A stretch of DNA of 64,000 nt from Escherichia phage vB_EcoP_SU7. The DNA lies in sequence record NC_070980.1. One strand, 5' to 3'. A model generated the notes under the pieces. That model saw only the letters and a list, made by a program, of their open reading frames with translations. It had not been told where the DNA came from and searched no databases. How positions within the stretch are numbered: the first letter of the stretch is position 1; each line of letters starts with the position of its first letter. A program made the translations under genes and the position numbers. Positions 8,765 to 64,000 of this stretch are shown piece by piece.

Positions 8765-9562
8765 ATGACAAAAATAATGGGAGTGTCAGAGCTTGACCCT
8801 TTGGTCCAACAAGCTTCTAAGAAATATGGCATTCCTGCTGCTCTTATACATGCAGTGATTCAGAGAGAGTCTAATGGAAGACCTTCTGTTGAATCTGGTA
8901 CAGGACCAGTAGGTTTAATGCAAATCAGTAAGGGGTTGGCTAAAGATTATGGATATAAACTTGAAGATAGGTTAGACCCTGCAAAGAATATTGACATGGG
9001 TGCTAGATATTTAAGAGATAACCTGAAAGCTTTTGATGGTGATGTGAGGAAGGCTTTGGTGGGGTATTCAGAAGGAACTGGTGGTGCTAAGCAAATGTTT
9101 GCTGGTAAGAGAGGGTTTACACCTCAAGCTTTAGATTCAATGAATAATAAGCTGTTCCTACCATTCTTTGATAAGAACACAGCAGCGGCACAAGTGGCTA
9201 ATCCTGTAGGTGCTTTGAAAGCAGTTCAGCCTGTGGACCAGTTTGATTCTAATACGCTGACTAGAGAAGGTGCTGCAAACGCTCCTACTCAAGCAGAGAT
9301 AGCTGCAAGCAAGGCTGGAGCTTTAGGTGGTCGTCCTGTAGAGTTTTACTCTGATGAACAACCTACTGGGGAAAATCAAAAACCTCAACAGAACTTTGGA
9401 AATGCTGTATTGGCAGCTGCTTCTATGCTTGCAGGAAAACAGCCTAACTCTCAAACCGTACAGAGAGCACATGCCCCTACTCAAGCAGGTTCTCGATACA
9501 GTCCACAAACACAAGCCGTGCTGAGACGTTTGTCTAGCATAGGTACTGATATTTACAGATAA
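8765..9562 (+). CDS. virion-associated lytic transglycosylase (SLT domain)
   Basis: IQRESNGRP…GLMQIS…VGYSEGTGG, the SLT catalytic Glu-Ser and GLMQ motifs. Confidence 0.75.
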   Translation: MTKIMGVSELDPLVQQASKKYGIPAALIHAVIQRESNGRPSVESGTGPVGLMQISKGLAKDYGYKLEDRLDPAKNIDMGARYLRDNLKAFDGDVRKALVGYSEGTGGAKQMFAGKRGFTPQALDSMNNKLFLPFFDKNTAAAQVANPVGALKAVQPVDQFDSNTLTREGAANAPTQAEIAASKAGALGGRPVEFYSDEQPTGENQKPQQNFGNAVLAAASMLAGKQPNSQTVQRAHAPTQAGSRYSPQTQAVLRRLSSIGTDIYR

Positions 9563-9571
9563 GGAGGACGT

Positions 9572-10624
9572 ATGTCTCTTTTCGGTTCTGCTCCTAAATC
9601 TAAGACTACGGTAGCTCCGTCTTCTCAGGTTGATGCTCTTCTGAAACAGATTGTAGCAAATGCTCAGGCTATGAATCAAAACGATCAAGGTTTTATTGGT
9701 CGTAACGTAGCGGGTTTTAATGAAAACCAAACAGCAGCTCTTTCTAATTTAGCAAATTCTAACACACTCAACCAACTCAGTCAGATGTACACCCCTAGAA
9801 CTCAACAAGGGTTGGACCAGATGAATGAGTTGGCTCAGAAATATCAAAACCTAGTTAATAAAGGTGGTATCACTGCTCAGGTTGTTAATAATTTTAGCTC
9901 TGGATTGAATAGCTCTGCTTTAGCTAAGTCTACAGGTAAAGCTGCTGCTAATGTATCTCTTGGTAATGGTTCTGATTCAGGTTCTCTTAGACGTGCTGCT
10001 GCTCAAGGTGCTGCTCTCTCTTCAGCGAATACAAACCTTTCTCGTTCTATTCAAGGTAAAAACATGGGTGTTAGCAATCTTATGAATAACAACTCCTATC
10101 AGCAAGGTTTGCTCAATGCTCAATCGGGTCTAGCAAATCAGAATTTGAATCTAGGAGCTGCTGGGGTACAAGCTGGTCAACAGGCAATACAGAATCAGCT
10201 CACTGCTGGGAATCTTCAACAACAGCAAGATCAACTCCAAGCTAACAACAATTGGGAGAATGCTATTGGCAATCAGCAGTATGGTTGGAATCGGCTTAAC
10301 AACCAGCTTAATGTATTAAACTCAGTAAGCCCAATGGCTGGGTACACCATTACTAACAAAGGTGCTGCCCCTAATGTTTCACAACAAATCCTTGGTGCTG
10401 GGGTTACTGGTCTTGGTATTGCTGGACGTCTAGGTGCTTTTACCCCTAATCAGCAAACTACTAATGCTTGGAACTCATACAATGCTTCTGGAGGTCAAGC
10501 TGGGATGGCTGGTCCTATGATTGGTGGCTCAAACCTGTCTCAACAGAATGGTCAGAGCAACTGGTTATCTACCGCAGGAAGTAATATCTTAGGTGGTGTT
10601 CTAGGAGCCTTTGGAGCAAATTAA
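9572..10624 (+). CDS. Gln/Asn/Gly-rich low-complexity virion protein (paralog A)
   Basis: Starts MSLFGS…KTT; GFNENQTAALSNL; paralogous to the next ORF. Confidence 0.6.
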   Translation: MSLFGSAPKSKTTVAPSSQVDALLKQIVANAQAMNQNDQGFIGRNVAGFNENQTAALSNLANSNTLNQLSQMYTPRTQQGLDQMNELAQKYQNLVNKGGITAQVVNNFSSGLNSSALAKSTGKAAANVSLGNGSDSGSLRRAAAQGAALSSANTNLSRSIQGKNMGVSNLMNNNSYQQGLLNAQSGLANQNLNLGAAGVQAGQQAIQNQLTAGNLQQQQDQLQANNNWENAIGNQQYGWNRLNNQLNVLNSVSPMAGYTITNKGAAPNVSQQILGAGVTGLGIAGRLGAFTPNQQTTNAWNSYNASGGQAGMAGPMIGGSNLSQQNGQSNWLSTAGSNILGGVLGAFGAN

Positions 10625-13284: not shown

Positions 13285-13304
13285 TCTAAGACCTAAGTCC
13301 TATC

Positions 13305-13322
13305 TCTTATAATGTATATAGG
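13305..13322 (+). promoter_or_regulatory. candidate promoter with TAATGTATATAGG motif
   Basis: TTATAATGTATATAGG about 35 nt upstream of the 13355 start; the same core recurs at 23084-23096 (-), 23157-23171 (+) and 35528-35543 (-). Confidence 0.35.
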
Positions 13323-13354
13323 AGGTAGGACATTTTTATTTATAAGGAGACGTT

Positions 13355-16300
13355 ATGGCTAATTTAAAATCGTGGGAAGAAGCTTCCAAAGCTCCTGCGT
13401 ATCTGAATGCCTCTCCAGAGCAACAGGCTCAAATGAGAGAACAATACAAGGCAGCAGGGGGCACTATTCCTGAGACTCAACCACAAGAGCAACCACAACA
13501 AGAAGAACGAGGTGTTATTGGGGAGTTTGCTCAAGGTGTGTCTAACGCTCTTCAATCAGGTGGTGCTAACATTGCAGCTAGTGCTGCTAAAGGTTTAGGT
13601 GGGCTGGTAGAGATTGGTGAAAACCTAACTGGTTCGGAAACAAGCTATGGTAAGCGCATTCAAGAGAACTCTAAGCAATTGCTGGAAGAACGCTTATCCA
13701 AGATAGGAGATGGTTTTGGTAAAACAGCTGGTCAGTATGCTGGTGTTGCTGCTGATATTGGTTTGACAGTTGCAAACCCTGCTGTTGCTGCTGCTGTTAT
13801 CACAGCTCGTGAAACAGGTCGTGCTTATGCTGATCAAACTCCTAAAGAAGATGAAGATAAGTCAATCTTAGATGCTGCTCTTGTTGGTGGTGCTAACTAC
13901 GCTGCTCAGAAGATACTTCCGGGCATGACTGGTACAGCTTCTACTACTCTAGGTCGTGTAGGACAAAGCGTAGCCTCTAACGCGGTTGCTGGTGCTAAGG
14001 GTGGTGCTATTGTTGGTGCTGCTGAAGCTCAGAACAAATATGGAGATGATACTACTCTAGCTAATGTCTTAGAAGGGGCTATTGAAGAAGGTGCACTCGG
14101 TGCCGCTTATGGTGGGGCGATTGGTGGGGTTCATGGGTTAATAAGTCGTCCTAGTCCTCAAGTGTTTGATCGTACTCCTGAGCATGTTAAGACTGACATT
14201 GCTGCTGAAGATGAGGCTATTCGTAAAGCTGCTAACGCTGATGAACTTCGTGAAGCCTATGCTAAAGCTGAGAATGCTAATGCTGCCTCTGCTTTAAACC
14301 TTCTGGATGAAAATGGTTTCCGAATCACAGATGCAGTTGCTATGGACTCTCCTGCTGTTCAACGTATATTAAATACAGATCAAAGTCGTGCAGAGAAGGC
14401 TGCTACGGTTCAGAAAGATAGTTCTAACGTTCCCGGTCTTAATCCTTTAGCTTCTCCTAAGAAGACTCAAGGTAAAGCTTTTGCTGACAATGAGTACAAC
14501 CAGAAACAAGCTGTGGCAATGAAAGATGCAATGGCTGACTACACTAAAGATAACACCAAAGCCCTTACTGATGTTCTAGACAATCTAGACCGAGAGTTAG
14601 TAGCTCTGAGAGCAAGTGGTGATTTTACTGGTAGTGCTATTGACATTAAAAACCGTACTCAAGCTGATCGTGATTTTATTGATGCTTATAAAACTTTTTA
14701 CAGTGAAGCTAATCGTTTCAAAGCTCGTGATGGTGAAGACCTAAACAACTTCATTGATAAAGCTACTCAGTTGCAGAAGCTCTCTGAAAATGTTTCTCCA
14801 GAAATGAAGAAGGCCATTGGTGGATTAAAGAAACTAAAAGGTATGCCTGAAGGTTTTAACCCTATCCAAGATGCTTTCACTCTGAATAATACAGCTAAGT
14901 TCATGAGTAACCAAGACCGTGGTTGGACCTCTCTGACTGATGACGGTTTTCGTGAAGCTCCGGCTCCTGTGTTAGTTAAGAACCCCCTCGGTGCAGCCAA
15001 GTATGTACTTAACCGCTTTACTTCCGATCGTGCTCGTGCTCAACGTGAGAAGCAACAGTCAGCTAATAGTGAAGCTATCCGCTCTTTGGCTAGGGCTGAT
15101 TTAGAAGTACAACGAGCTAGGACTCAGGCTGAAGAAGCAAGAGCAAAAATGGAAGAAGAACCAACCACAGAAGACATCAAATTCCGTACTCAAAATGATG
15201 CACCTTCCGAACCGGTTCGTGAGGAGCCTTCTGCTACTACTGTGACGGAAGAAATTCCTTCCTCTCCAGCTCCAACTGAAACACCTCTTACTGCGAGGGA
15301 TTTGGTTGCTCAAAGACGTGCTCTACAACAAGCAGAACTTAGACGTCAAGAAGCGGAAGCTGCTCAGGCTCAAGAAAGCACTACTCCAGAACCTGAACCA
15401 CAGCAAGAAGCATTGACAGCGAGAGAGCTAGTAGCTCAGCGCAGGGCTGTAGCAGAAGCGAAGAAACGTCAAGAAGCAGAGGAGGCAGAACGTGCCAAAG
15501 AAGCTCCTGAGAAGACCGTAGAGGAACCTCAAGAGAAACCTGAGCCATTACCTGCTCGTGCGCCTAAAGCTCCTGAGAAGGCTCCTGAGCCTGTTAAACC
15601 ATCACTCGGTGTAGAGCGTCTGGCTTCCATGTCAACTGCTGCCCGTCAGGCAACAAAAGATCGTGCTGACCGATTTGCTCGTTCTTTGTATTCGGCTGCT
15701 GCTAAAGCTAAAGCTACTGCGGAAAACTTCCTTTCTTATAAAGGAGACCCTAAAGAGCTTATGCGTCGTATCCGTCAGGAAGACCAAGCAAACAACACAC
15801 AGCGTCATGAAGAGATGGCTAGAAACCAGCTAGCTTCACAGCAAGGTATTGCTTCTGCTAAGTCTCAACATGTTCGTTCTTCTTTTGCTGATTGGGTAAA
15901 AGAGCGTGGATTGCCTTCTGATATTGCTACTAAGGCTTTACGTGCTGAAGAGAAGGGTTTGGGTGGAAACGTCACAAGTCTAGACTCACTGAAACGAAGA
16001 GCTGAGCGTTTATATCAGAAACAGAGAGATGATGAATTTGACCGTCTCTATCGAGAGGCTCTGGAAGAGAATAAAGCTTTTGACAAGAAAGATGCTCCTA
16101 AACTGGTAGATCAGAAGAAAGAGCTTCAGGATGAAATTGGTACACTGCTTGATGCAGAACCGTTACGTCCTGCTCAGAAAGATGCTATGCGTAGGATTAT
16201 GGAAGACTTCGTGGAGAGTAAGTTTAAATCTTCAGAGAGAGCTGGAAGGGTTGAGGCTTTGGAAGTTGGTCAGATGAAGGATGTGTGGGATGGGTTTATT

Positions 16301-19705: not shown

Positions 19706-20294
19706 AGAGACCTCTCCGTGTCTCTTCAATAATCCACTCTAAATCCTCAACTGCCTCTTCTACAGAACGGTCATTAAAGAGGAGGTAGGTTGGTAGGTTT
19801 GTTCCTTCAATATAAGAACGGGAGTCCCCTTCAAAGGAGCAGCCATCGCGGAGAACCTGAACCACTCGAACATGGAAGTGTTTCTCTAGTTCTTCAACTT
19901 CTGCTTTAAAACCACCATCAGAGAAGACGATAACATCATTCTGTGATGGGATATGTTGTTGGATACTGCTAACAGCAAGTTTACCCATGCAGGTCTCACC
20001 AAACATAGGCTTCAGGTAATTCTCGCTAGTTGCAATCATCAAGTCTCGAACTGACTTACCGCCCCATTCAGGACGGACAAGTTCTTTCCACTCACGGTCG
20101 TTGTACAGCTCCATGAACTCGTAAAGAGGTAGACCTAATGCAGCAGCAGCCACTCGATACATAGGCTCCTTAAAAGCCCTTACATGCGGCCTAAACTCAG
20201 TGTTACCAGTGGTCTTCTCTAACCAAGCACTGGCGATTGTATCTTTACCGCAACCCGGAGGTCCATTTAGAATTACTACTAATGGTTTACTCAT
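19698..20294 (-). CDS. P-loop kinase, deoxynucleoside monophosphate kinase-like
   Basis: Walker A NGPPGCGKDT; size and layout resemble phage dNMP kinases (recalled, not searched). Confidence 0.45.
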   Translation of the reverse strand: MSKPLVVILNGPPGCGKDTIASAWLEKTTGNTEFRPHVRAFKEPMYRVAAAALGLPLYEFMELYNDREWKELVRPEWGGKSVRDLMIATSENYLKPMFGETCMGKLAVSSIQQHIPSQNDVIVFSDGGFKAEVEELEKHFHVRVVQVLRDGCSFEGDSRSYIEGTNLPTYLLFNDRSVEEAVEDLEWIIEETRRGLYV

Positions 20295-20944
20295 TATTGA
20301 ATCATCCCTTGAAGATCTTCTTTATCAAAGTGCTTCTCTACTACCGCTTCATACAGATCACGATTCTCCGAATAACGGCGATAGAAGGTTCCGTGTGAAA
20401 TTCCCAGCTCTTGCTGGATGTGATCATGAGGTATACCGAGGAAGAGCATTGAGAACATACTTGCCATCTTGCGGTTTTCCATAATATCACTTAGGTCCTG
20501 GAAGAAGAAAAAGATTCTAGATTCCAAGAATGGGTCTCCAGTAGAATCATGCTTATCCATAGCAATCTCTAAAGGACTTTCCCATGAATTCATCTCGGGA
20601 GGTCTAAACATATCAGCCTCTGGAATAGAATAGATACGTCTGTCTCCAACTGTCTGACGATTAGAACGAATCGACCAGATGATATTCTTCACACGATAAG
20701 TCATGTGTTCAATATCTTTTTCATCGGTAAGCAATAGTTCTTCTTGCTTTGCAAATACAAAACGCCAAGAGTTCAGTAACACTTCCTGAGCAACATCCTC
20801 TGCTTCGTGATAATCTTTAATGTCGTACATAAAATACTTATGCACAACTTTCCAATTCTCTCGATAGAATTCATCGAAGGTTGGGTAGTACTTAATAGGT
20901 ATGCCATGAATACGATAGCGTGTGGGTGTTGTCTTTTTCTTCAT
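20294..20944 (-). CDS. phage-encoded sigma factor-like protein
   Basis: Region 2-like [13 protein letters not shown] and region 4-like [15 protein letters not shown]. Confidence 0.5.
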
Positions 20945-20968
20945 AAGTCATCCTTAACTTACTTTACA

Positions 20969-21193
20969 TTAAACTACACAGAATAAATACATTGCTGTTT
21001 CAGGGGAAGGTATGTGGTCACTAGGATATCTAACCCTAATCCACTCATCATCTTCTGCTACATAATAAGCCCAATAAGACCCATTTTCATTAATAAAGAA
21101 CTTGAAGGTACAACCAAAGATTTGGTTATTGTGTTCCCATACTGCATGAAACTGAGTAACACCTTCTGGTATTGTAAGTTCCGCTCTGATCAT
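20969..21193 (-). CDS. hypothetical protein
   Basis: 74-aa ORF in operon context. Confidence 0.4.
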   Translation of the reverse strand: MIRAELTIPEGVTQFHAVWEHNNQIFGCTFKFFINENGSYWAYYVAEDDEWIRVRYPSDHIPSPETAMYLFCVV

Positions 21194-21456
21194 TGTATTC
21201 CTCTCTCCTTTAGAGCTTTAAGCAAACCGTTGTGGTTAGCGGCACAGGTTGTATAAGTGTCCTGATACCACTCGAGTGTTGTTGCAAGTGCTACTCCCTG
21301 TCCACTCTGAAGTAAAGGGAGGTCTACATCACATTCAGCTTTTAGGTTTGTTGGTAAGGGCATTAGCTGCCTGCTGTTGTCGCTCGTTGAACAAGCCATC
21401 AAACTAGAAGCGAGAAAAATCACCAAACAACTCTTTTGCTTTTTCTTTGTAAGCAT
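21190..21456 (-). CDS. lipoprotein, candidate outer-membrane spanin
   Basis: Signal peptide with lipobox LMAC; short mature part with Pro and Cys; lies downstream of the candidate inner-membrane spanin. Confidence 0.4.
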   Translation of the reverse strand: MLTKKKQKSCLVIFLASSLMACSTSDNSRQLMPLPTNLKAECDVDLPLLQSGQGVALATTLEWYQDTYTTCAANHNGLLKALKERGIQ

Positions 21457-21790
21457 TTTCTGCACCCTCTTGAGTGCTGTGATAACCAAGCCAAATTACT
21501 TTGTTTTGATATCCGATGCGAGCACTCCATTTGTTAATATCCGACCTGTACCCTACACCTTTTATTCCAGTTAAAGAGTTCTTTTGAACTATTTTGTTGG
21601 CATTATTAAGGACAGGTGTTGCTCTTCTTAGATTGCTCCAAGAATTATTAGATTTGTCTAAATCTTTATGGTCTATTTGAAAATCAGGAATCTCTCCAGT
21701 TTTGATATACCAAGCAATTCTATGAGCTTTGTACTGTTTATATTGATAGGTAATCACTGTATAGCCATCTGTGGCTTTACAACCTGCCAC
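21404..21790 (-). CDS. HNH homing endonuclease with AP2-like DNA-binding domain
   Basis: IDHKDLDKSNNSWSNLR (HNH) and GIKGVGYRSDINKWSARIGY…GYHSTQEGAENAY (AP2-like). Confidence 0.6.
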   Translation of the reverse strand: MAGCKATDGYTVITYQYKQYKAHRIAWYIKTGEIPDFQIDHKDLDKSNNSWSNLRRATPVLNNANKIVQKNSLTGIKGVGYRSDINKWSARIGYQNKVIWLGYHSTQEGAENAYKEKAKELFGDFSRF

Positions 21791-21885
21791 CTTTCCAGCG
21801 AATCTTGAATTCCACTGAGCGCTCTTATCCTCAGAATGTTTCCAGTAGAGAAGACCAGAAACCTCATCGTAAGATAGATATTTAA

Positions 21886-22227
21886 CTAATTCTTTAATTT
21901 CAGTGCCTCCGCTGCTTGTTGCTGTCGTTCATTGAAAAGTCCTACATACTCATCACTAGCACACACATTGTAAAAAACTGGCTTAGTCTTTTCATAATGC
22001 ATCTCTTTGTAAATAGTTTCCGTGTTCTTCTTCCAGTTAGATAAACCAGTCAGAACTTTCTGAGCCACTTCATCAGCAGCCTTAGCTCTCTCAACCTCAA
22101 TCTCTTGCTGTTTCTTCTCATGGTCAAGAGCATTACTATTACTTCTGTATTGCTCAAACTTGACACCACCAAAGAAAATAATAGCTGTGAAAATAAGAAA
22201 GCCTATATTGTTTTGAAGCTTTTCCAT
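21886..22227 (-). CDS. type II membrane coiled-coil protein, candidate inner-membrane spanin
   Basis: N-terminal TM (IGFLIFTAIIFFGGV) then charged coiled coil; ATG at 22227. Confidence 0.4.
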   Translation of the reverse strand: MEKLQNNIGFLIFTAIIFFGGVKFEQYRSNSNALDHEKKQQEIEVERAKAADEVAQKVLTGLSNWKKNTETIYKEMHYEKTKPVFYNVCASDEYVGLFNERQQQAAEALKLKN

Positions 22228-22240
22228 TTTAACTCCAACG

Positions 22241-22264
22241 AAAAAAGCCACCCGAAGGTGGCTA
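22241..22264 (-). terminator. rho-independent terminator (minus strand)
   Basis: GCCACC-CGAA-GGTGGC stem with U-run on the minus-strand transcript, after the 22287 gene end. Confidence 0.5.
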
Positions 22265-22286
22265 AGCTATTACAAGGAGAGATTCA

Positions 22287-23027
22287 TTAGAAAGGGCTGT
22301 CATCTTCTTCAAAGGTAGACTGCGGCTCTTCGTTAATAGTAGGGATACTTGGAGTAGCATCTTTCTGTTCAATATCAGAAGCTTTAGTAACTTCACGACC
22401 AGCCAGAGGGATGTTCTTAGCATCATTAGCTTGGGTCAGAAGATTACGTTGGAATGGGAAGATTGCTTGATAAGCAGCCAAGTTAGCATCAGTCTCAGCA
22501 TATGGTTCGAAGAAGATCAACTCACTACGAGGGGCACCTACAGAATCACGATATTTGGTAGGGATTGGAGTGATACTCTTAATGGAGTTTTTCTTCTCAC
22601 CAGCTTTGTTTACATAGGAATTAACCAGAATGTTAACAGGCTGACCTAGCAGCATATCTTTAAACCAACCCAAATCACCTTTCAGTGCTTGAACACTTGG
22701 GTCGATCATTTTGATCAGATTCAGAATACCAGAGTTCTTAGCTCGTGGGTTTACGTCGAAAGTTTTAAACTGGCAAGCAGGACGAGGGTCCAGAGGTTTG
22801 CCTTCATTATCAGTCCCTGTTGCATCCACGCCAATCAGTTCAAAAGCCAAGTCCATACGGAAAGCTGGGTTCTTAGGAGTAACTGCTTTAGTCTTAGGGT
22901 CAATCCAAGGGTCACGATTGTGAACACCTAAACCTACAACACGAACAATACGTGCTTCGTACTCACCATCAGGGATTACATCGTAGTTGGATTTACGGGA
23001 TACAGACAGTTCAGGGATCATAGACAT
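22287..23027 (-). CDS. putative single-stranded DNA-binding protein
   Basis: 246 aa ending in an acidic tail …TFEEDDSPF, as in SSB and T7 gp2.5 C-termini; first gene after a 415-bp intergenic region. Confidence 0.35.
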   Translation of the reverse strand: MSMIPELSVSRKSNYDVIPDGEYEARIVRVVGLGVHNRDPWIDPKTKAVTPKNPAFRMDLAFELIGVDATGTDNEGKPLDPRPACQFKTFDVNPRAKNSGILNLIKMIDPSVQALKGDLGWFKDMLLGQPVNILVNSYVNKAGEKKNSIKSITPIPTKYRDSVGAPRSELIFFEPYAETDANLAAYQAIFPFQRNLLTQANDAKNIPLAGREVTKASDIEQKDATPSIPTINEEPQSTFEEDDSPF

Positions 23028-23083
23028 ATTAATATTTCCTTATATAAATTTAAGATTGTTGCTCTCTTTGAGCGGTTTGTATA

Positions 23084-23096
23084 CTATATACATTAC
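23084..23096 (-). promoter_or_regulatory. candidate promoter motif GTAATGTATATAG (minus strand)
   Basis: About 57 nt upstream of the 23027 start; same core as 13310. Confidence 0.35.
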
Positions 23097-23156
23097 ACTT
23101 ATACAGATAAGGTTCTATTATACTATAACCTTTTTGGTAGTAGATAATGACAAGTA

Positions 23157-23171
23157 GTAATGTATATATGG
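23157..23171 (+). promoter_or_regulatory. second copy of the TAATGTATATA motif, opposite orientation
   Basis: GTAATGTATATATGG on the plus strand inside the 23028-23442 intergenic region. Confidence 0.25.
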
Positions 23172-23442
23172 TATAGCTAGTAAAGCTATTGCAGGCTTGT
23201 ATATTGGGCAATCATTGTAACCCTTGCAAGTACCGAAGGGCAGGAGACACCTGCGAGATAAAAATAGAGAATTAAGGAAATCCTTGATTTAGGTTGTAGG
23301 GACTCCTAGGGACTTTGATTCTCTATTTAAAAGAATATTAATTACTTACTACCTAAATAATTAACTAACTTACTTAAACCAAACTCAAGAATAATAGATA
23401 AAAAGATTATTCCTAAGAAAGCTAAAAAGTAAAGGATATAAG

Positions 23443-23607
23443 TTACCATTCAAGTAAACCTTTAAAGTTAGTTTGTTCTACTATCCTCTGATAACGAAGA
23501 TTAGAATCAGCTTGTTTCTTTAACATCTCATTATATTTATCTCTGATAGGGTCTTTATAAACTACAGGTTCTTTAAATAACGAGATCTTGTTCTTTTCTT
23601 CTTTCAT
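23443..23607 (-). CDS. small hypothetical protein
   Basis: ORF 23443-23691 trimmed to an internal ATG to reduce overlap with the phosphatase gene; start uncertain. Confidence 0.35.
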   Translation of the reverse strand: MKEEKNKISLFKEPVVYKDPIRDKYNEMLKKQADSNLRYQRIVEQTNFKGLLEW

Positions 23608-25832: not shown

Positions 25833-26212
25833 TACTCCCTTTCATAAATTTTAAGAACTGTACCGCCATCTGCTTCAATCTGAGCAACTACTTCATCGCG
25901 CTCTTCATCAGAATAAACCAGTTGGTTGTGAAATTTGCCTGTACTATCTTGGAAATACACATTCCATTTTGGAGCAGGTTTACGAATCAAATCCATCATT
26001 GATCTCTCTCCTCTCGTTCAACCCATGTATGGAAAAGCTCCCCATACACTTTGGCATCATCAAAACGTCCTTCTTCCTGTGCGAGTTTTTGTTGCTTCAA
26101 GCACCATTCAGAACTTTTTACTTCTTCCACTTCCTTGTCTCCTTAAAAAAGAACTAATCAATAAGACTAGTTCATTTCATAATACGATTCAGCTCTTCCA
26201 CTGAACTAATCA

Positions 26213-29915: not shown

Positions 29916-30233
29916 TCAACTTGAGCTTAAAGCTCCTTTGCGACCGCCTGCTGATTTTCCAGCACGATCTCCACTTTTGCCGCCGTTCGAGCGATTTCGA
30001 GAGACTGATTCAACACGTAAGTTACTTGACGCATTAGAACCTCCCGACTTGATTGATCGTTTGTGTCCAACATCTTTACCTCGGACAGCAGCTTTTCCAT
30101 CGCGCTTTTCAACGATGCGACGTGCACGGTGGCGCTGAGCATCTCCGCTCTTGCTCCCAATTCCCGTTTCACCGCGCTTGATCGCAGTCCTTCTTTCTTG
30201 AGCATAGTCTCTTTTTCCTACATGATCTGCCAT
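29916..30233 (-). CDS. highly basic low-complexity protein
   Basis: 105 aa, Arg/Lys/Gly/Ser-rich; codon choice fits this frame better than two overlapping alternatives. Confidence 0.4.
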   Translation of the reverse strand: MADHVGKRDYAQERRTAIKRGETGIGSKSGDAQRHRARRIVEKRDGKAAVRGKDVGHKRSIKSGGSNASSNLRVESVSRNRSNGGKSGDRAGKSAGGRKGALSSS

Positions 30234-30562
30234 TAGATTTCTCCTGATTCTCTTTGGTTAAAGGTGTGGATGGCGTGGCAATTAGCACACAATATCCTGC
30301 ACTTCCTCATCTCTTCTTTTATTTGAGATAAAGATCTGGTGTGCCCTTTGGAGAGTTCGAATGACTTAGTTAATGGATTTAAATGATCAAACTGAAGAGC
30401 AGATGCGTGGCCTTTAAAACCACATTCAGAGCACCCGTAGAATGTTTTAACTCTACGAATAAAAGCTAGTTGCCTAAACCTTCTTCTCTCATTGTCTGCT
30501 TTTCTCTTATCTCTATTTCCTGGGTCGGCCCATCTACACGAGTCATTGCAAAACCTCTGCAT
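30233..30562 (-). CDS. HNH endonuclease
   Basis: CSECGFKGHASALQFDHLNP…CANCHAIH. Confidence 0.55.
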   Translation of the reverse strand: MQRFCNDSCRWADPGNRDKRKADNERRRFRQLAFIRRVKTFYGCSECGFKGHASALQFDHLNPLTKSFELSKGHTRSLSQIKEEMRKCRILCANCHAIHTFNQRESGEI

Positions 30563-35185: not shown

Positions 35186-35516
35186 CCCCTTCTAAGTTAG
35201 TTGAATTAGCTACATTACGAGCAATGTTATCCATGACCTGCTGTGTAATAACAATGCAATTCTGAGGGTCTACTGATTTAGAACGCCCCATCTCAGGGTC
35301 ATAGACTTTGACTCGCTTGGCTGTTGAGCCAGTAACTTGCAACACTTTGAGAAGATAGCCTTGGTTTCCAATAGACCATGCAACAACATCACGATTCTTG
35401 ATATAACGACCAAGCATGTCACGATGATAGAACTGCTGCATAACTTTAGCTTTGCTAATCTCTTCAGATGGCGGGGCCACTTTACTCAAATCTAACATAA
35501 CTCTCTCCTGTTTCAT
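35169..35516 (-). CDS. hypothetical protein
   Basis: 115-aa ORF preceded by an intergenic promoter-like motif. Confidence 0.45.
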   Translation of the reverse strand: MKQERVMLDLSKVAPPSEEISKAKVMQQFYHRDMLGRYIKNRDVVAWSIGNQGYLLKVLQVTGSTAKRVKVYDPEMGRSKSVDPQNCIVITQQVMDNIARNVANSTNLEGDAPNA

Positions 35517-35527
35517 ACAATATTCTT

Positions 35528-35543
35528 ATACTGTATATACATT
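35528..35543 (-). promoter_or_regulatory. candidate promoter motif AATGTATATACAG (minus strand)
   Basis: In the 35517-35568 intergenic gap; same TGTATATA core as 13310 and 23084. Confidence 0.3.
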
Positions 35544-35568
35544 TGAGAGTTATCATATCTACTACCAA

Positions 35569-36524: not shown

Positions 36525-38008
36525 GAGTTTCTGTTTCCTTGTACAGATGATGCCAAATTATTAATCATATTACGAGCTGTTTCACGAGATAGTGTAACAC
36601 CTGCTAGGTTGTTGTGAAGCTCACCAGATAGCTCACGAGCTGCTGCTCGTAGTTCTGCACCAAGTGCAGTGTCAGAGTGAGCTAGACCATTACGACGACC
36701 AACAGGTCGAGGAGCTTCGTTAGCGTCATTAGCTAATGATGCAAAACCAATATGAGCAGCTTCACGAGCCGCTATAGCTGATACTCGATCTTCTGTAGGG
36801 GTTGGCAAATCACCAACTTCTACACGTTCAATATCACTAGCACGTAGACCCTGAACAACAGAGCTTACTGTTTCCCATGAACGACGAGAACGCTGCAAAT
36901 CATCCATTGACGGAGATGGAATAGGACGAGCAGTTCCTCCTTGGACATGCCATGTACGAGTATCCATTCCAGAAGAGTGTGCACTACCAAAACTACCAGT
37001 GAAAGTATCACGAGGTCTTTCATGAGGTTGTACGTTATACCCTACAACACCCCCTCGAACAGTTCGAGAAGTTTCTTCATTAAAAGCTTGAAGATCTCGT
37101 CTGTTAGTTCCCGGAGTCCAAGGTCGTGTAATTGCTTCAGCACCTATAGTGGTTAATCCACTAGACCATTCTGTCTGTAGGTTAACTTCCTCGTCCAGAT
37201 AACTACGACCCCTTTCCTGAGGAATGTTTAATGTAGTTTCCATCATCTTCAGGGTATAATGACGACGCTGATTCTGATATAAATTTACACCAGCCATAGG
37301 CCCAACTAAATCACTGATCAGATGAACTTCTGGTTCACCAAAAGCTCCCATTGCAAGGTGCATGTACTCAGTAGAACTGCTGTAAACTGCAACTGTTGCT
37401 TCAGGCCACTTTTTGTGGACATACTTCATGTCACGACTTGTCACCACAGGGATATCATTAGTATATGCCATTGCAAACATACCTTCGTTCGACACATACA
37501 TATCATCGAGAGTCATAAACCCTTGACAAATCATAGGGAAGCGACCGCTCAGAGTATCCATATCCAGAGGGAGGTTAATCATCATCTGAATCTTCACTTC
37601 GTCAATCTCCACTTCCAAAATCTCTTGGAAAGTGAAAAGTGCTTCAGCGTAGGTTGTTCCACTGATAGGCTGAACTAGTCGAGATGTAACTTGAAGCCCC
37701 TTACTCTCTGTCCAAGACAAGAAGTTGTCAAGGAACAGTGCAGCATTACTTACGTTAGCAGGGCTGTTTTCCTGACGAGTGTTCCAACGGAATCCTCCTT
37801 GAACTAGGAAGATATCAACATCATTCGGAGTTCGATTTTGGAAGAACGTATCACGGATAGCACCACCTGCAATGACAGGATAGATACCATCAGGGACTAC
37901 GTTATCTCTGATCAGATTGCGAATCAGATCAAGCCCTACGCTGAGGGCTTCTCCTTCTTGAAGGTTTAATTCAGACAATGGAATCTTAATCATTTCTACA
38001 TTTTCCAA
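36521..38008 (-). CDS. nucleotidyltransferase-domain protein (tRNA-NT / poly(A) polymerase-like head) with long C-terminal extension
   Basis: [24 protein letters not shown] matches the GG.[VI]RD…D.D head motif; C-terminal ~250 aa Ala/Arg/Ser-rich. Confidence 0.4.
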
Positions 38009-41054: not shown

Positions 41055-41240
41055 TTATTCTACTTCGAAGTGTTTGATCACACCAGTCAGTACATCAGAT
41101 TGGAATGTACCCACTAGCTCTGTACCTCGGAAGAAGTTGACATTTGTTCCAAGTGATTCAAAGCGATCTGCTTGAATGTCCAGAGATTGAATATTTCCTT
41201 CTGCTGACATTGTACGAAACATGATTGTGTATTTATTCAC
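41055..41240 (-). CDS. small hypothetical protein
   Basis: 61-aa ORF. Confidence 0.35.
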   Translation of the reverse strand: MNKYTIMFRTMSAEGNIQSLDIQADRFESLGTNVNFFRGTELVGTFQSDVLTGVIKHFEVE

Positions 41241-41479
41241 AGACTTGTTACTCCCTTATCTGCTTGTGCAATTGCGATGATACGCTCAGCACATTCCATT
41301 GAATATTTATCACCTCGTTTGAGGAAGGTGATGATTGCAGAGAACTGATTACCAATCATTCTCTTATTTGTGATACCGAACTCTTCACAGAGTTGGTTGA
41401 TAGCTTTACGAGAGCCTACAATAAGAGGCTCTTTTTCTTCGGTCATTCCACGGCTGATCAAATCTTCGATAGACAACAT
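41237..41479 (-). CDS. small hypothetical protein
   Basis: 80-aa ORF coupled to neighbours. Confidence 0.4.
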   Translation of the reverse strand: MLSIEDLISRGMTEEKEPLIVGSRKAINQLCEEFGITNKRMIGNQFSAIITFLKRGDKYSMECAERIIAIAQADKGVTSL

Positions 41480-54422: not shown

Positions 54423-54498
54423 TTGGTGCACCCTACAGGATTCGAACCTGTAACCAACGACTTAGAAGGTCGCTGCTCTGTCCATTGAGCTAAGGGTG
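54423..54498 (-). tRNA. tRNA-Arg (anticodon UCU)
   Basis: Minus-strand read GCACCCT-TA-GCTC…GAGC-A-GCGAC-CUUCUAA-GUCGU…ACAGG-UUCGAAU-CCUGU-AGGGUGC-A-CCA folds as a canonical cloverleaf with encoded CCA. Confidence 0.85.
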
Positions 54499-54508
54499 CT
54501 GGATTTGT

Positions 54509-61489: not shown

Positions 61490-61782
61490 AGGCTAAACAT
61501 CTAGCCTATCAGGAGGTAACTTACTGCATCACGTCCTGACAAGATTCAATATACACTATCCTAAAACCGTTGCAAGCCTTTTTCTAAAAATAATTTCACT
61601 TTCTTTTGTGTACAGAGGAACGCGCACACGAATAACATCAAGGGAGGAAGAAAACAAGCCTTATAATCGAAAATAAGGCATACAGGAGGTGTTCTAACGA
61701 GCTAAACAAGGGCAAGATGTGCAATCACCTTAGAAATGAAAAAAGCGCCTCAAAAGGGCGCTTAGAAAGTCTTACGGATTGG

Positions 61783-63222: not shown

Positions 63223-63499
63223 TATTACTACTCCTGATAAATGAAAGATTGTTTGTCGTGTGTGGTTACTTAGGCTGATCAACCTTCACTACTCACTATC
63301 ACCGCTAACTACTTTACATCACTGCTTCATTAACGATAATTCAAACTACGATTGCAACTATATATTAAAGGAAAAACTTGTCAACCACTTATTTTCAAAC
63401 TGTTTAGATTTCTAATCACAACTCATTGAATCTAAAAGAAATTTAATTTACTAAACTTTCTTGTTCAGAGATATAGCTTACTACTTAATAACACTTATA

Positions 63500-63610
63500 G
63501 AACGGGTAGCAGACCAACGGGATAGATGCATGGGTAAGACGTGCCGCATAGGTTAGCCAATGGGTAAGAAGCCTAACGGGGAAGGGGAAACGGGTAGGGT
63601 ATAATGTAAG
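63500..63610. repeat. cluster of about six degenerate A(C/T)GGGTA(A)G repeats ending in a TATAAT-containing motif
   Basis: ACGGGTAG, ACGGGATAG, ATGGGTAAG (x2), ACGGGGAAGG, ACGGGTAGGGTATAATGTAAG at 11-28 bp spacing in an ORF-free region. Confidence 0.4.
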
Positions 63611-64000
63611 TTAGTTACAGGTAACAGGTCAGACCATGCGGTAATAAATTACCAGTCAAAAATCTACTCATCAAAAGAAAAAAGAAACGCTGAAAAAGAA
63701 AAGAATAAAAGAAAGAATAAAAATAATAACTAAAGTAAACAACTACCAATTCTCATTGCTACGCAATGGACTAAAACCAGTCTAATGATACATACATCAA
63801 TAATCCACTCATGAAACATTAACATAAGTTATTACATTCAAACGTGGGGAAGTGTTAGCAACAGTATAGTTTACATAGGTTATCATTAATGTTCTTACTA
63901 TTAATACCGGTTAGTTATAGTCACTATCAGTATGCCTGTACAGTGCTAGCCTTTCATCCCTTCTCAACATGAGTAAGAGAAATACGGGTAGGAAATCACT

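Follow-up and report, generated by a model that had tools for sequence, protein, structure and literature searches.

The motif that recurs in the window, by which is meant the whole stretch of 64,000 nucleotides of Escherichia phage vB_EcoP_SU7 that was analysed (NC_070980.1), very likely serves as a -10-like promoter element for E. coli RNA polymerase carrying the phage's own sigma factor, a homologue of gp36, with a homologue of gp79 helping. Three copies, at 13310(+), 23095(-) and 35544(-), can be assigned with high confidence as gp36 promoters, the predicted orthologues of P26, P40 and P68 in phage phiEco32. Because these copies lie at the positions of P26, P40 and P68 and match the published consensus, the sequence-only reading of the motif as a promoter signal was correct and also already known; the motif is published as the gp36 promoter signal of phiEco32-like coliphages. 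The phage in the window uses the published phiEco32 gp36/gp79 programme, to which the main finding adds nothing new, and the orthologues of P26, P40 and P68 can now be annotated in this phage. The analysis also gives three leads in a system with purified components and a cryo-EM structure: an extra promoter without a gene, class-specific words in the -35 region and a promoter in a terminator loop. The first of these, the plus-strand copy at 23158, is a credible and probable, though unlisted, promoter for a conserved small RNA. The coordinates of the features are collected in Table 1.

Table 1. Features of the gp36-type transcription system in the window, with coordinates of the whole stretch unless phiEco32 is named
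Feature	Position	Strand	Details
Sigma factor, gp36 homologue	20294-20944	-	216 aa; E = 2.8e-117 to PDB 9M7Y chain F
gp79 homologue	41237-41479	-	E = 5e-37 to PDB 9M7Y chain G
Predicted P26 orthologue, late	13287..13320	+	TAAGACCTA at -38..-30 (13287-13295); core TAATGTATATA at 13310-13320; PWM 18.2 bits
TAAGACCTA in late promoters	window 13287-13295; phiEco32 9078-9086, 25991-25999	+	at -38..-30
15-bp hairpin with AUUUUUAUUU, predicted intrinsic terminator	13297..13341 (hairpin 13297-13331)	+	terminator scan, folding
Predicted P40 orthologue, middle	23085..23117	-	core TAATGTATATA at 23095..23085; -34A at 23114; PWM 18.6 bits
Predicted P68 orthologue, middle	35534..35566	-	GGTAGTAGATA at 35566..35556 (-37..-27); AAATGTATATA at 35544..35534
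Candidate divergent seventh copy	23136..23168	+	GGTAGTAGATA (-37..-27), 11-nt spacer, TAATGTATATA; PWM 15.5 bits; predicted start 23173
Predicted non-coding transcript	23173..23330	+	about 157 nt; 5' hairpin, variable middle, invariant block
5' hairpin (helix 1)	23173-23189	+	6 bp, ATAGCT/AGCTAT; first base is the predicted start 23173
Invariant block	23232-23328	+	essentially invariant in all relatives; includes long stem 23262-23328

The window is that of a phiEco32-like podophage (Gordonclarkvirinae). A 12-kb piece around the motif region is matched by 97 records of phiEco32-like phages, all from Escherichia or Shigella; the best of the 97 matches is Bas86 with 96.7% identity, and phiEco32 itself is found among the relatives. 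The gene order is collinear with that of phiEco32, with the late virion genes on the plus strand up to 17800 and the middle and early genes on the minus strand from 18029. The sigma-like protein noticed from the sequence alone is indeed encoded in the window, as a homologue of gp36. The tRNA-Arg gene (anticodon TCT) at 54424-54499 (-) is also found as in phiEco32 and is the sole Rfam match in the window at the gathering score.

In phiEco32, gp79 inhibits transcription by sigma70 and co-activates gp36 (PMC12276001). An alignment to PDB 9M7Y_F shows that the gp36 homologue in the window keeps E79, H80, Y83, R84, W90, S91, S94 and N95 as well as Y186 and R187, the last two being placed two residues later because of a 2-aa insertion. 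All DNA-contacting residues of gp36 are thus kept, and the same promoter specificity is expected.

Pavlova et al. [quoted passage not shown] According to Lavysh et al. 2022 (PMC8948821), six promoters of the gp36 holoenzyme have been mapped in that phage, with the consensus tAATGTAtA and a start 6-8 bp downstream. Table S3 of that study gives P6 (TAATGTAgA), P13 and P26 as late and P40, P58 and P68 (aAATGTATA) as middle promoters, and the SU10 genome paper gives the same six with their sequences (PMC4281155). Exact copies of TAATGTATA are found in phiEco32 at 9101+ (P13), 26014+ (P26), 36632- (P40), 36704+ and 42937- (P58), while the cores of P68 and P6 are the variants AAATGTATATA and TAATGTAGA. 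A cryo-EM study from 2025 in NAR describes the open complex of RNA polymerase, gp36 and gp79 on P68 (PDB 9M7Y), in which AATGTA is centred at -11.5; N95, S91 and S94 of gp36 read -14A, -13A and -12T, E79 and H80 read -11G, and R187 and Y186 touch -37G and -34A (PMC12276001). Mutation of the bases contacted by gp36 abolishes promoter activity, and both P26 and P68 are transcribed by the gp36 holoenzyme, P26 in vitro, with stimulation by gp79 (PMC12276001). The sequence-only reading had pointed to a similar consensus for late promoters of the phiEco32 sigma factor. The consensus is right, since gp36 reads tAATGTAtA (PMC8948821, PMC12276001, PMC4281155), but the element serves middle and late promoters and not late ones alone.

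Exactly four copies of the 10-mer AATGTATATA are present (13311+, 23094-, 23159+ and 35543-), where 0.19 would be expected, and none of 100 dinucleotide shuffles reached four, the largest count being 1. All four copies are intergenic, in a window where about 10% of the DNA is non-coding. When one mismatch is allowed, TAATGTATA has 22 matches against 18 expected; the enrichment is lost, which shows that the signal is the exact extended word. A position weight matrix (PWM) built from seven phiEco32 sites only was also used to scan the window. The four copies are its top four hits, with 14.4-18.6 bits; the following hits reach at most 13 bits, and shuffled sequence gives a mean of 0.23 hits at 15 bits or more. 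Each copy has a base-for-base counterpart in phiEco32, namely P26, P40, P68 or the copy at 36704+.

The placement of the motif before gene starts was confirmed for the three promoters with a gene downstream: TTATAATGTATATAGG (13307-13322, +) precedes the ATG at 13355 by 32 nt, GTAATGTATATAG (23096..23084, -) precedes the ATG at 23027 by 57 nt, and AATGTATATACAG (35543..35531, -) is situated within the gap 35517-35568. The assignment of these sites as promoters is based on orthology and on the conserved contact residues of the sigma factor, and the starts were predicted by taking AATGTA as -14..-9. For P26 this gives a start at 13325 and a 30-nt leader with the ribosome-binding site AAGGAG, followed by the gene for a 1481-aa protein from 13355. 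The P26 region of the window is nearly identical to phiEco32 25991-26024, and the near-identity spans -38 to +40. The predicted P40 start at 23080 results in a 53-nt leader, with a ribosome-binding site, to the ATG at 23027; the P40 core is invariant in 17 distinct versions despite three unrelated upstream sequences. The predicted P68 start is 35529, and the leader is 31 nt with a GGAGAG ribosome-binding site if gene 68 starts at the ATG at 35498. That codon, as in phiEco32, is probably the true start of the gene, and not the upstream ATG at 35516.

In phiEco32 the N-terminal domain of gp36 reads A-14, A-13, T-12 and G-11 of AATGTA and melts the DNA from -11, its C-terminal domain contacts the -35 region at -37 and -34, and transcription starts about 7 nt past tAATGTAtA. 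By orthology, the site at 13310(+) is the predicted late promoter of the gene for the 1481-aa virion protein, the site at 23095(-) the predicted middle promoter for the operon that begins with gene 40 and extends through the sigma gene, and the site at 35544(-) the predicted first middle promoter, at the boundary between early and middle genes. P6 and P13 fall outside the window. No orthologue of P58 was found in the window by motif or PWM search, and there is no motif near 30233. Its absence is explained by a TAATG stop/start at that point (30225-30240), where the homologues of genes 58 and 59 overlap and leave no spacer.

Other candidate sites in the window were rejected. Related TAATGTAA(A)GT motifs had been noticed before the sigma gene and near the right end, and these do exist, but they do not belong to the same set. 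The first, TAATGTAAAGT at 20971..20961 (20963-), reaches 4.6 bits, with G at -34; the close relative Bas86 has an identical site, but in phiEco32 a sigma70-like TGGACA-N18-TATAAT takes its place. The second, TAATGTAAGT at 63602-63611 (+), scores 7.3 bits, contains TATAAT and lies in the non-coding region at the right end, where it is unconserved in phiEco32. A score of 4.6 bits or more is reached at over 130 positions of the window and one of 7.3 bits or more at about 50, and such background-level scores together with the absence from phiEco32 led to the rejection of both sites. Among the lower PWM hits, 61547(-) corresponds to the -10 region of an early promoter of the sigma70 type, 46418(-), with the sequence TAATGTAGA, lies inside a coding region and is unconserved, and 35527(+) is a palindromic shadow of P68.

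An AT-rich and partly palindromic word could recur by chance, and the lack of enrichment of the 9-mer at one mismatch fits such an explanation. It is hardly conceivable for the exact 10-mer, given the count of four, the intergenic position of every copy, the correct orientation of three of them upstream of genes and the fact that three are orthologous to mapped promoters, with conservation of the copies across genera. The motifs might also be ordinary sigma70 promoters or AT-rich -10 variants for the unmodified host polymerase; the P26 copy contains a perfect TATAAT at 13308-13313, and in the SU10 genome paper the P68 region is taken to be sigma70-like as well (PMC4281155). Scans at the four sites, however, found no TTGACA-like -35 element 16-18 nt before a TATAAT-like -10 element, and the invariant -11G and -14A fit the contacts of gp36 and not the sigma70 consensus. 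In phiEco32, furthermore, it is the gp36 holoenzyme that transcribes these promoters, while transcription by sigma70 is shut off by gp79 (PMC12276001, PMC8948821). The window does contain genuine sigma70 promoters, such as TTGCAA-N16-TGTATATT near 61550(-), and their appearance is different. A sigma70 origin of the motif is for these reasons very improbable, and recognition by the gp36 homologue is preferred.

The core of P26 lies inside the loop of a terminator hairpin, an arrangement that is unreported in the literature accessible to search. The hairpin is followed by ATTTTTATTT, and its 5-nt loop consists of the ATGTA of the P26 core. It folds at -21.2 kcal/mol with a z of -5.4; the phiEco32 version folds at -22.8 kcal/mol and has five one-sided differences, all of which are still paired through G.U. 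Read-through transcription from gene 25 would stop at this hairpin. Because the predicted P26 start is located inside the 3' arm, transcripts from P26 would lack the 5' arm, could not form the hairpin and would escape termination. Terminator-like hairpins are also found before P6, P13 and P68.

The phiEco32 promoters have earlier been described as "single-element" promoters (PMC8948821). Position -34 is nevertheless A in P6, P13, P26, P40, P58 and P68 of phiEco32 and in its divergent copy, in the four sites of the window and in all P40 variants. Position -37 is more variable: in the window it is G in P68 and in the copy at 23158(+), A in P26 and T in P40, and the published promoters of phiEco32 vary there to the same extent. 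Longer words also recur. P68 and the divergent copy have TTGGTAGTAGATA in common at -39..-27, and GGTAGT, which both have at -37..-32, is found at exactly this place in P40 of the myPSH1131-type lineage too. Among the late promoters, P13 and P26 both carry TAAGACCTA at -38..-30, and they do so across genera, in phiEco32, KBNP1711, ECBP2, NJ01 and one uncultured relative. As an independent motif TAAGACCTA was rejected; its three other exact copies in the window have no downstream -10 element and are probably due to chance. The conservation of -34A and the recurring words make the "single-element" description look incomplete, which fits the 2025 structure. The difference between the late TAAGACCTA and the GGTAGT word of the P68 type could be a basis of middle versus late timing, and class-specific words of this kind might explain how two temporal classes arise from one sigma factor. 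Such words are unreported in the literature accessible to search.

The fourth copy was described in the sequence-only reading as plus-oriented and antisense to the early genes. The copy is present, as GTAATGTATATATGG at 23157-23171 (+), but the genes to which it is antisense are middle genes (homologues of 41-68). Its phiEco32 orthologue is the copy at 36704+ (36682-36714), so phiEco32 also has a seventh copy, facing the opposite way and outside the published lists. The window has exactly two copies of the block GGTAGTAGATA, one in P68 and one in the divergent copy, and both are followed after 11 nt by (T/A)AATGTATATA, so that the -35 block and the spacing of the divergent copy are identical to those of P68. 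When 11 diverse relatives are aligned, neither block shows any change, whereas the 11-nt spacer is variable. The exact bipartite match is present in every sampled spacer between genes 40 and 41 except in one lineage, which has GGTAGTATATC-N11-TAATGTATATA with two substitutions in the -35 block. The divergent copy is the best conserved of the four copies in the window.

There is no gene downstream of the divergent copy, and the copy is absent from the three published promoter lists accessible to search (PMC8948821 Table S3; PMC4281155). These lists came from groups that searched with the same motif, which counts against the divergent copy. Taken together, its conservation and its likeness to P68 point with moderate confidence to an active promoter, of the P68 type, that would fire away from P40 with a start at 23173. 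The fuller proposal, put forward with about equal belief and doubt, is that a seventh gp36/gp79-dependent promoter is present in all sampled Gordonclarkvirinae and gives rise to a structured RNA that is non-coding, about 157 nt long and antisense to the terminator separating two middle operons. If true, it would mean a phage sigma-dependent RNA with a regulatory or replication-priming role in an otherwise closely studied transcription system.

Some variation was seen around this site among the relatives. In the lineage of the myPSH1131/ES17 type, which is the one with GGTAGTATATC-N11-TAATGTATATA, an insertion of about 150 nt separates P40 from the divergent promoter, which is nevertheless retained; the P40 of this lineage is the one with GGTAGT at -37..-32. 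Two metagenomic variants have changes in the core of the divergent promoter (TAATATATATA and TAATGTATACA).

The region downstream of the fourth copy has the features of a structured RNA. The hairpin at the 5' end begins at the predicted +1 in all three lineages, although the intervening bases differ. Alignment folding shows compensatory exchanges in helix 1, from U-A to G-C and from C-G to U-A or A-U, together with a change from G-C to G.U; outside helix 1 the changes in the predicted RNA are of the G.U type only. The folding energy is -45.5 kcal/mol on the plus strand versus -36.4 kcal/mol on the minus strand. The one-sided changes in predicted pairs are all G.U-compatible on the plus strand only, and helix 6 is paired in 100% of cases on the plus strand and in 77% on the minus strand; this comparison of the pairs is biased towards the plus strand, for which the structure had been predicted. 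Most of the predicted pairs are invariant and thus uninformative. The middle domain exists in two unrelated versions among the relatives. The plus-strand U-tract after the long stem is short (UAUUU), which makes the 3' end of the RNA uncertain.

The sequence is also the most conserved of the region. Identity to phiEco32 is 95.1% for the predicted RNA and 98.1% for the invariant block, compared with 75-83% for four genes (26, 40, 68 and the sigma gene). In the 418-nt spacer all 97 relatives have at least 80% identity, whereas 54 of them have only 60-80% identity in the 12-kb flank.

A protein-coding function for 23173-23330 was rejected since its only open reading frame (28 codons, starting with TTG) does not stay intact in sequences of the phiEco32 type, where a 1-nt indel interrupts it. 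The open reading frame 23050-23211 on the minus strand, annotated in some records, was rejected as well; it overlaps both promoters and is unannotated in phiEco32. A search with the Rfam covariance models gave no family for 23173-23330, the best E-value within 23000-23500 being 1.3, and the predicted RNA had no match in E. coli genomes or plasmids. In an RNA-RNA target search of all translation-initiation regions the best energy was -42 kcal/mol versus -35 to -39 for shuffled RNAs. This best trans target is unconvincing, with a loop-ridden duplex and a core of only 7 bp. The literature searched has no mention of an RNA, an origin or a promoter at the 23.2-kb spot.

A role in cis might be suggested by the other strand. 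There the long stem 23262-23328 is followed by TTTTTAT and is likely to be the terminator of the leftward operon of genes 68-41, before P40 re-initiates. An RNA from 23173 would be fully complementary to the 3' end and terminator region of this operon, and it would be made by the same holoenzyme and at the same time as its target. The likeliest role of the RNA, and the simplest reading, would be that of a cis-antisense or insulating transcript at the operon boundary, which is suggested here with low certainty.

Next to this region, at 23342-23449 (-), there is a gene for a hydrophobic peptide of 35 aa (MVTYILYFLAFLGIIFLSIILEFGLSKLVNYLGSK), a homologue of phi32_41 that is below the cut-off of the list of open reading frames. 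It is missing from several relatives (Bas86, ECBP2, Paul and XT32).

The main rival to an antisense or insulating transcript is a transcription-primed replication origin. It belongs to a wider explanation in which 23158(+) is conserved at the level of DNA with no RNA product, as a transcription-activated origin, a polymerase roadblock or an upstream element of P40. A promoter-like element beside a structured invariant block and an AT-rich stretch at 23330-23440 would suit an origin, the block is conserved (98% identity) beyond the needs of RNA helices, and the literature searched has no description of an origin in phages of this group. The AT-rich stretch is, however, the gene for the 35-aa membrane peptide, which several relatives lack, and the compensatory changes in the +1 hairpin together with the G.U-only changes point to a plus-strand RNA. 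The GC skew just tracks the direction of transcription and has nothing at 23.2 kb, which is uninformative as a test of an origin, and an origin primed by a transcript from 23158(+) would still need an active promoter. Conservation at the level of DNA is therefore judged unlikely to account for the site. The conservation of 23136-23330 could also be a matter of the minus strand only, as a terminator or processing site of the operon of genes 68-41 with the upstream region of P40, the plus-strand match being incidental. The TTTTTAT after the long stem on the minus strand speaks for this, as does the fact that terminators precede or overlap the other gp36 promoters P6, P13, P26 and P68. A terminator nevertheless leaves unexplained an invariant bipartite match of 33 nt with the exact spacing of P68, situated 95-190 nt beyond it, as well as a covarying hairpin exactly at the predicted plus-strand start, and the pairing of helix 6 is better on the plus strand. 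A purely minus-strand explanation appears somewhat less probable still, and a plus-strand promoter with an RNA product remains the preferred reading of the fourth copy.

Transcription-dependent origins are known from other phages. In T7 the primary origin consists of phi1.1A/B with an AT-rich region, and in T4 oriF and oriG consist of a middle promoter and an unwinding element. Only the fourth copy resembles these, in that a phage promoter without a downstream gene is followed by a conserved non-coding and AT-rich region. The difference is that the region after the fourth copy is a strongly folded RNA-like element and not a simple unwinding element.

As a promoter system, the window has the same core (t/aAATGTATAta) as phiEco32, the same genome positions of P26, P40 and P68, the same DNA contacts of the sigma factor, a gp79 and the -37..-27 block at P68, and differs in having no orthologue of P58. 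The late promoters of Salmonella phage 7-11 and Cronobacter phage GAP52 are also read by host RNA polymerase directed by a phage sigma factor and are found at equivalent genome positions (PMC8948821). Their consensus, in contrast, is GTAAtg-N16-aCTA, read by the sigma factor gp47 and unrelated to the one found here (PMC8948821). The sigma factor of these phages is only about 15% identical, and they have neither gp79 nor a middle class of promoters. The authors of the 2025 structure draw an analogy to the middle promoters of T4 (MotA box, AsiA), where a two-protein switch likewise silences sigma70 promoters and redirects RNA polymerase to an element specific to the phage (PMC12276001). In T4 sigma70 is retained and remodelled, whereas it is replaced in the gp36 system.

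Some further observations concern other parts of the window. At about 21400-22320 (-) the Bas86 record (9480-10372) annotates an Rz-like spanin as a join of two pieces, between which lies a gene for an HNH endonuclease, and this hints at an intervening sequence; no group I intron was found in the window with Rfam at the gathering score. Two early promoters of the sigma70 type are present on the minus strand, one at 61547-61590 (TTGCAA-N16-TGTATATT) and one at 63360-63395 (TTGACA-N16/17-TATAGT) upstream of the homologue of gene 128, the latter being conserved in phiEco32. Repeated words of the type (A/T)CGGG(T/G)A(G/A) are found at 63480-63600 and 63975-63985, namely ACGGGTAGC, ACGGGATAG, ATGGGTAAG (twice), ACGGGGAAG and ACGGGTAGG. 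They lie in a non-coding region that matches the right end of phiEco32, where more copies of ACGGGGA are located beside the terminal repeat, and they could be sites for packaging or replication.
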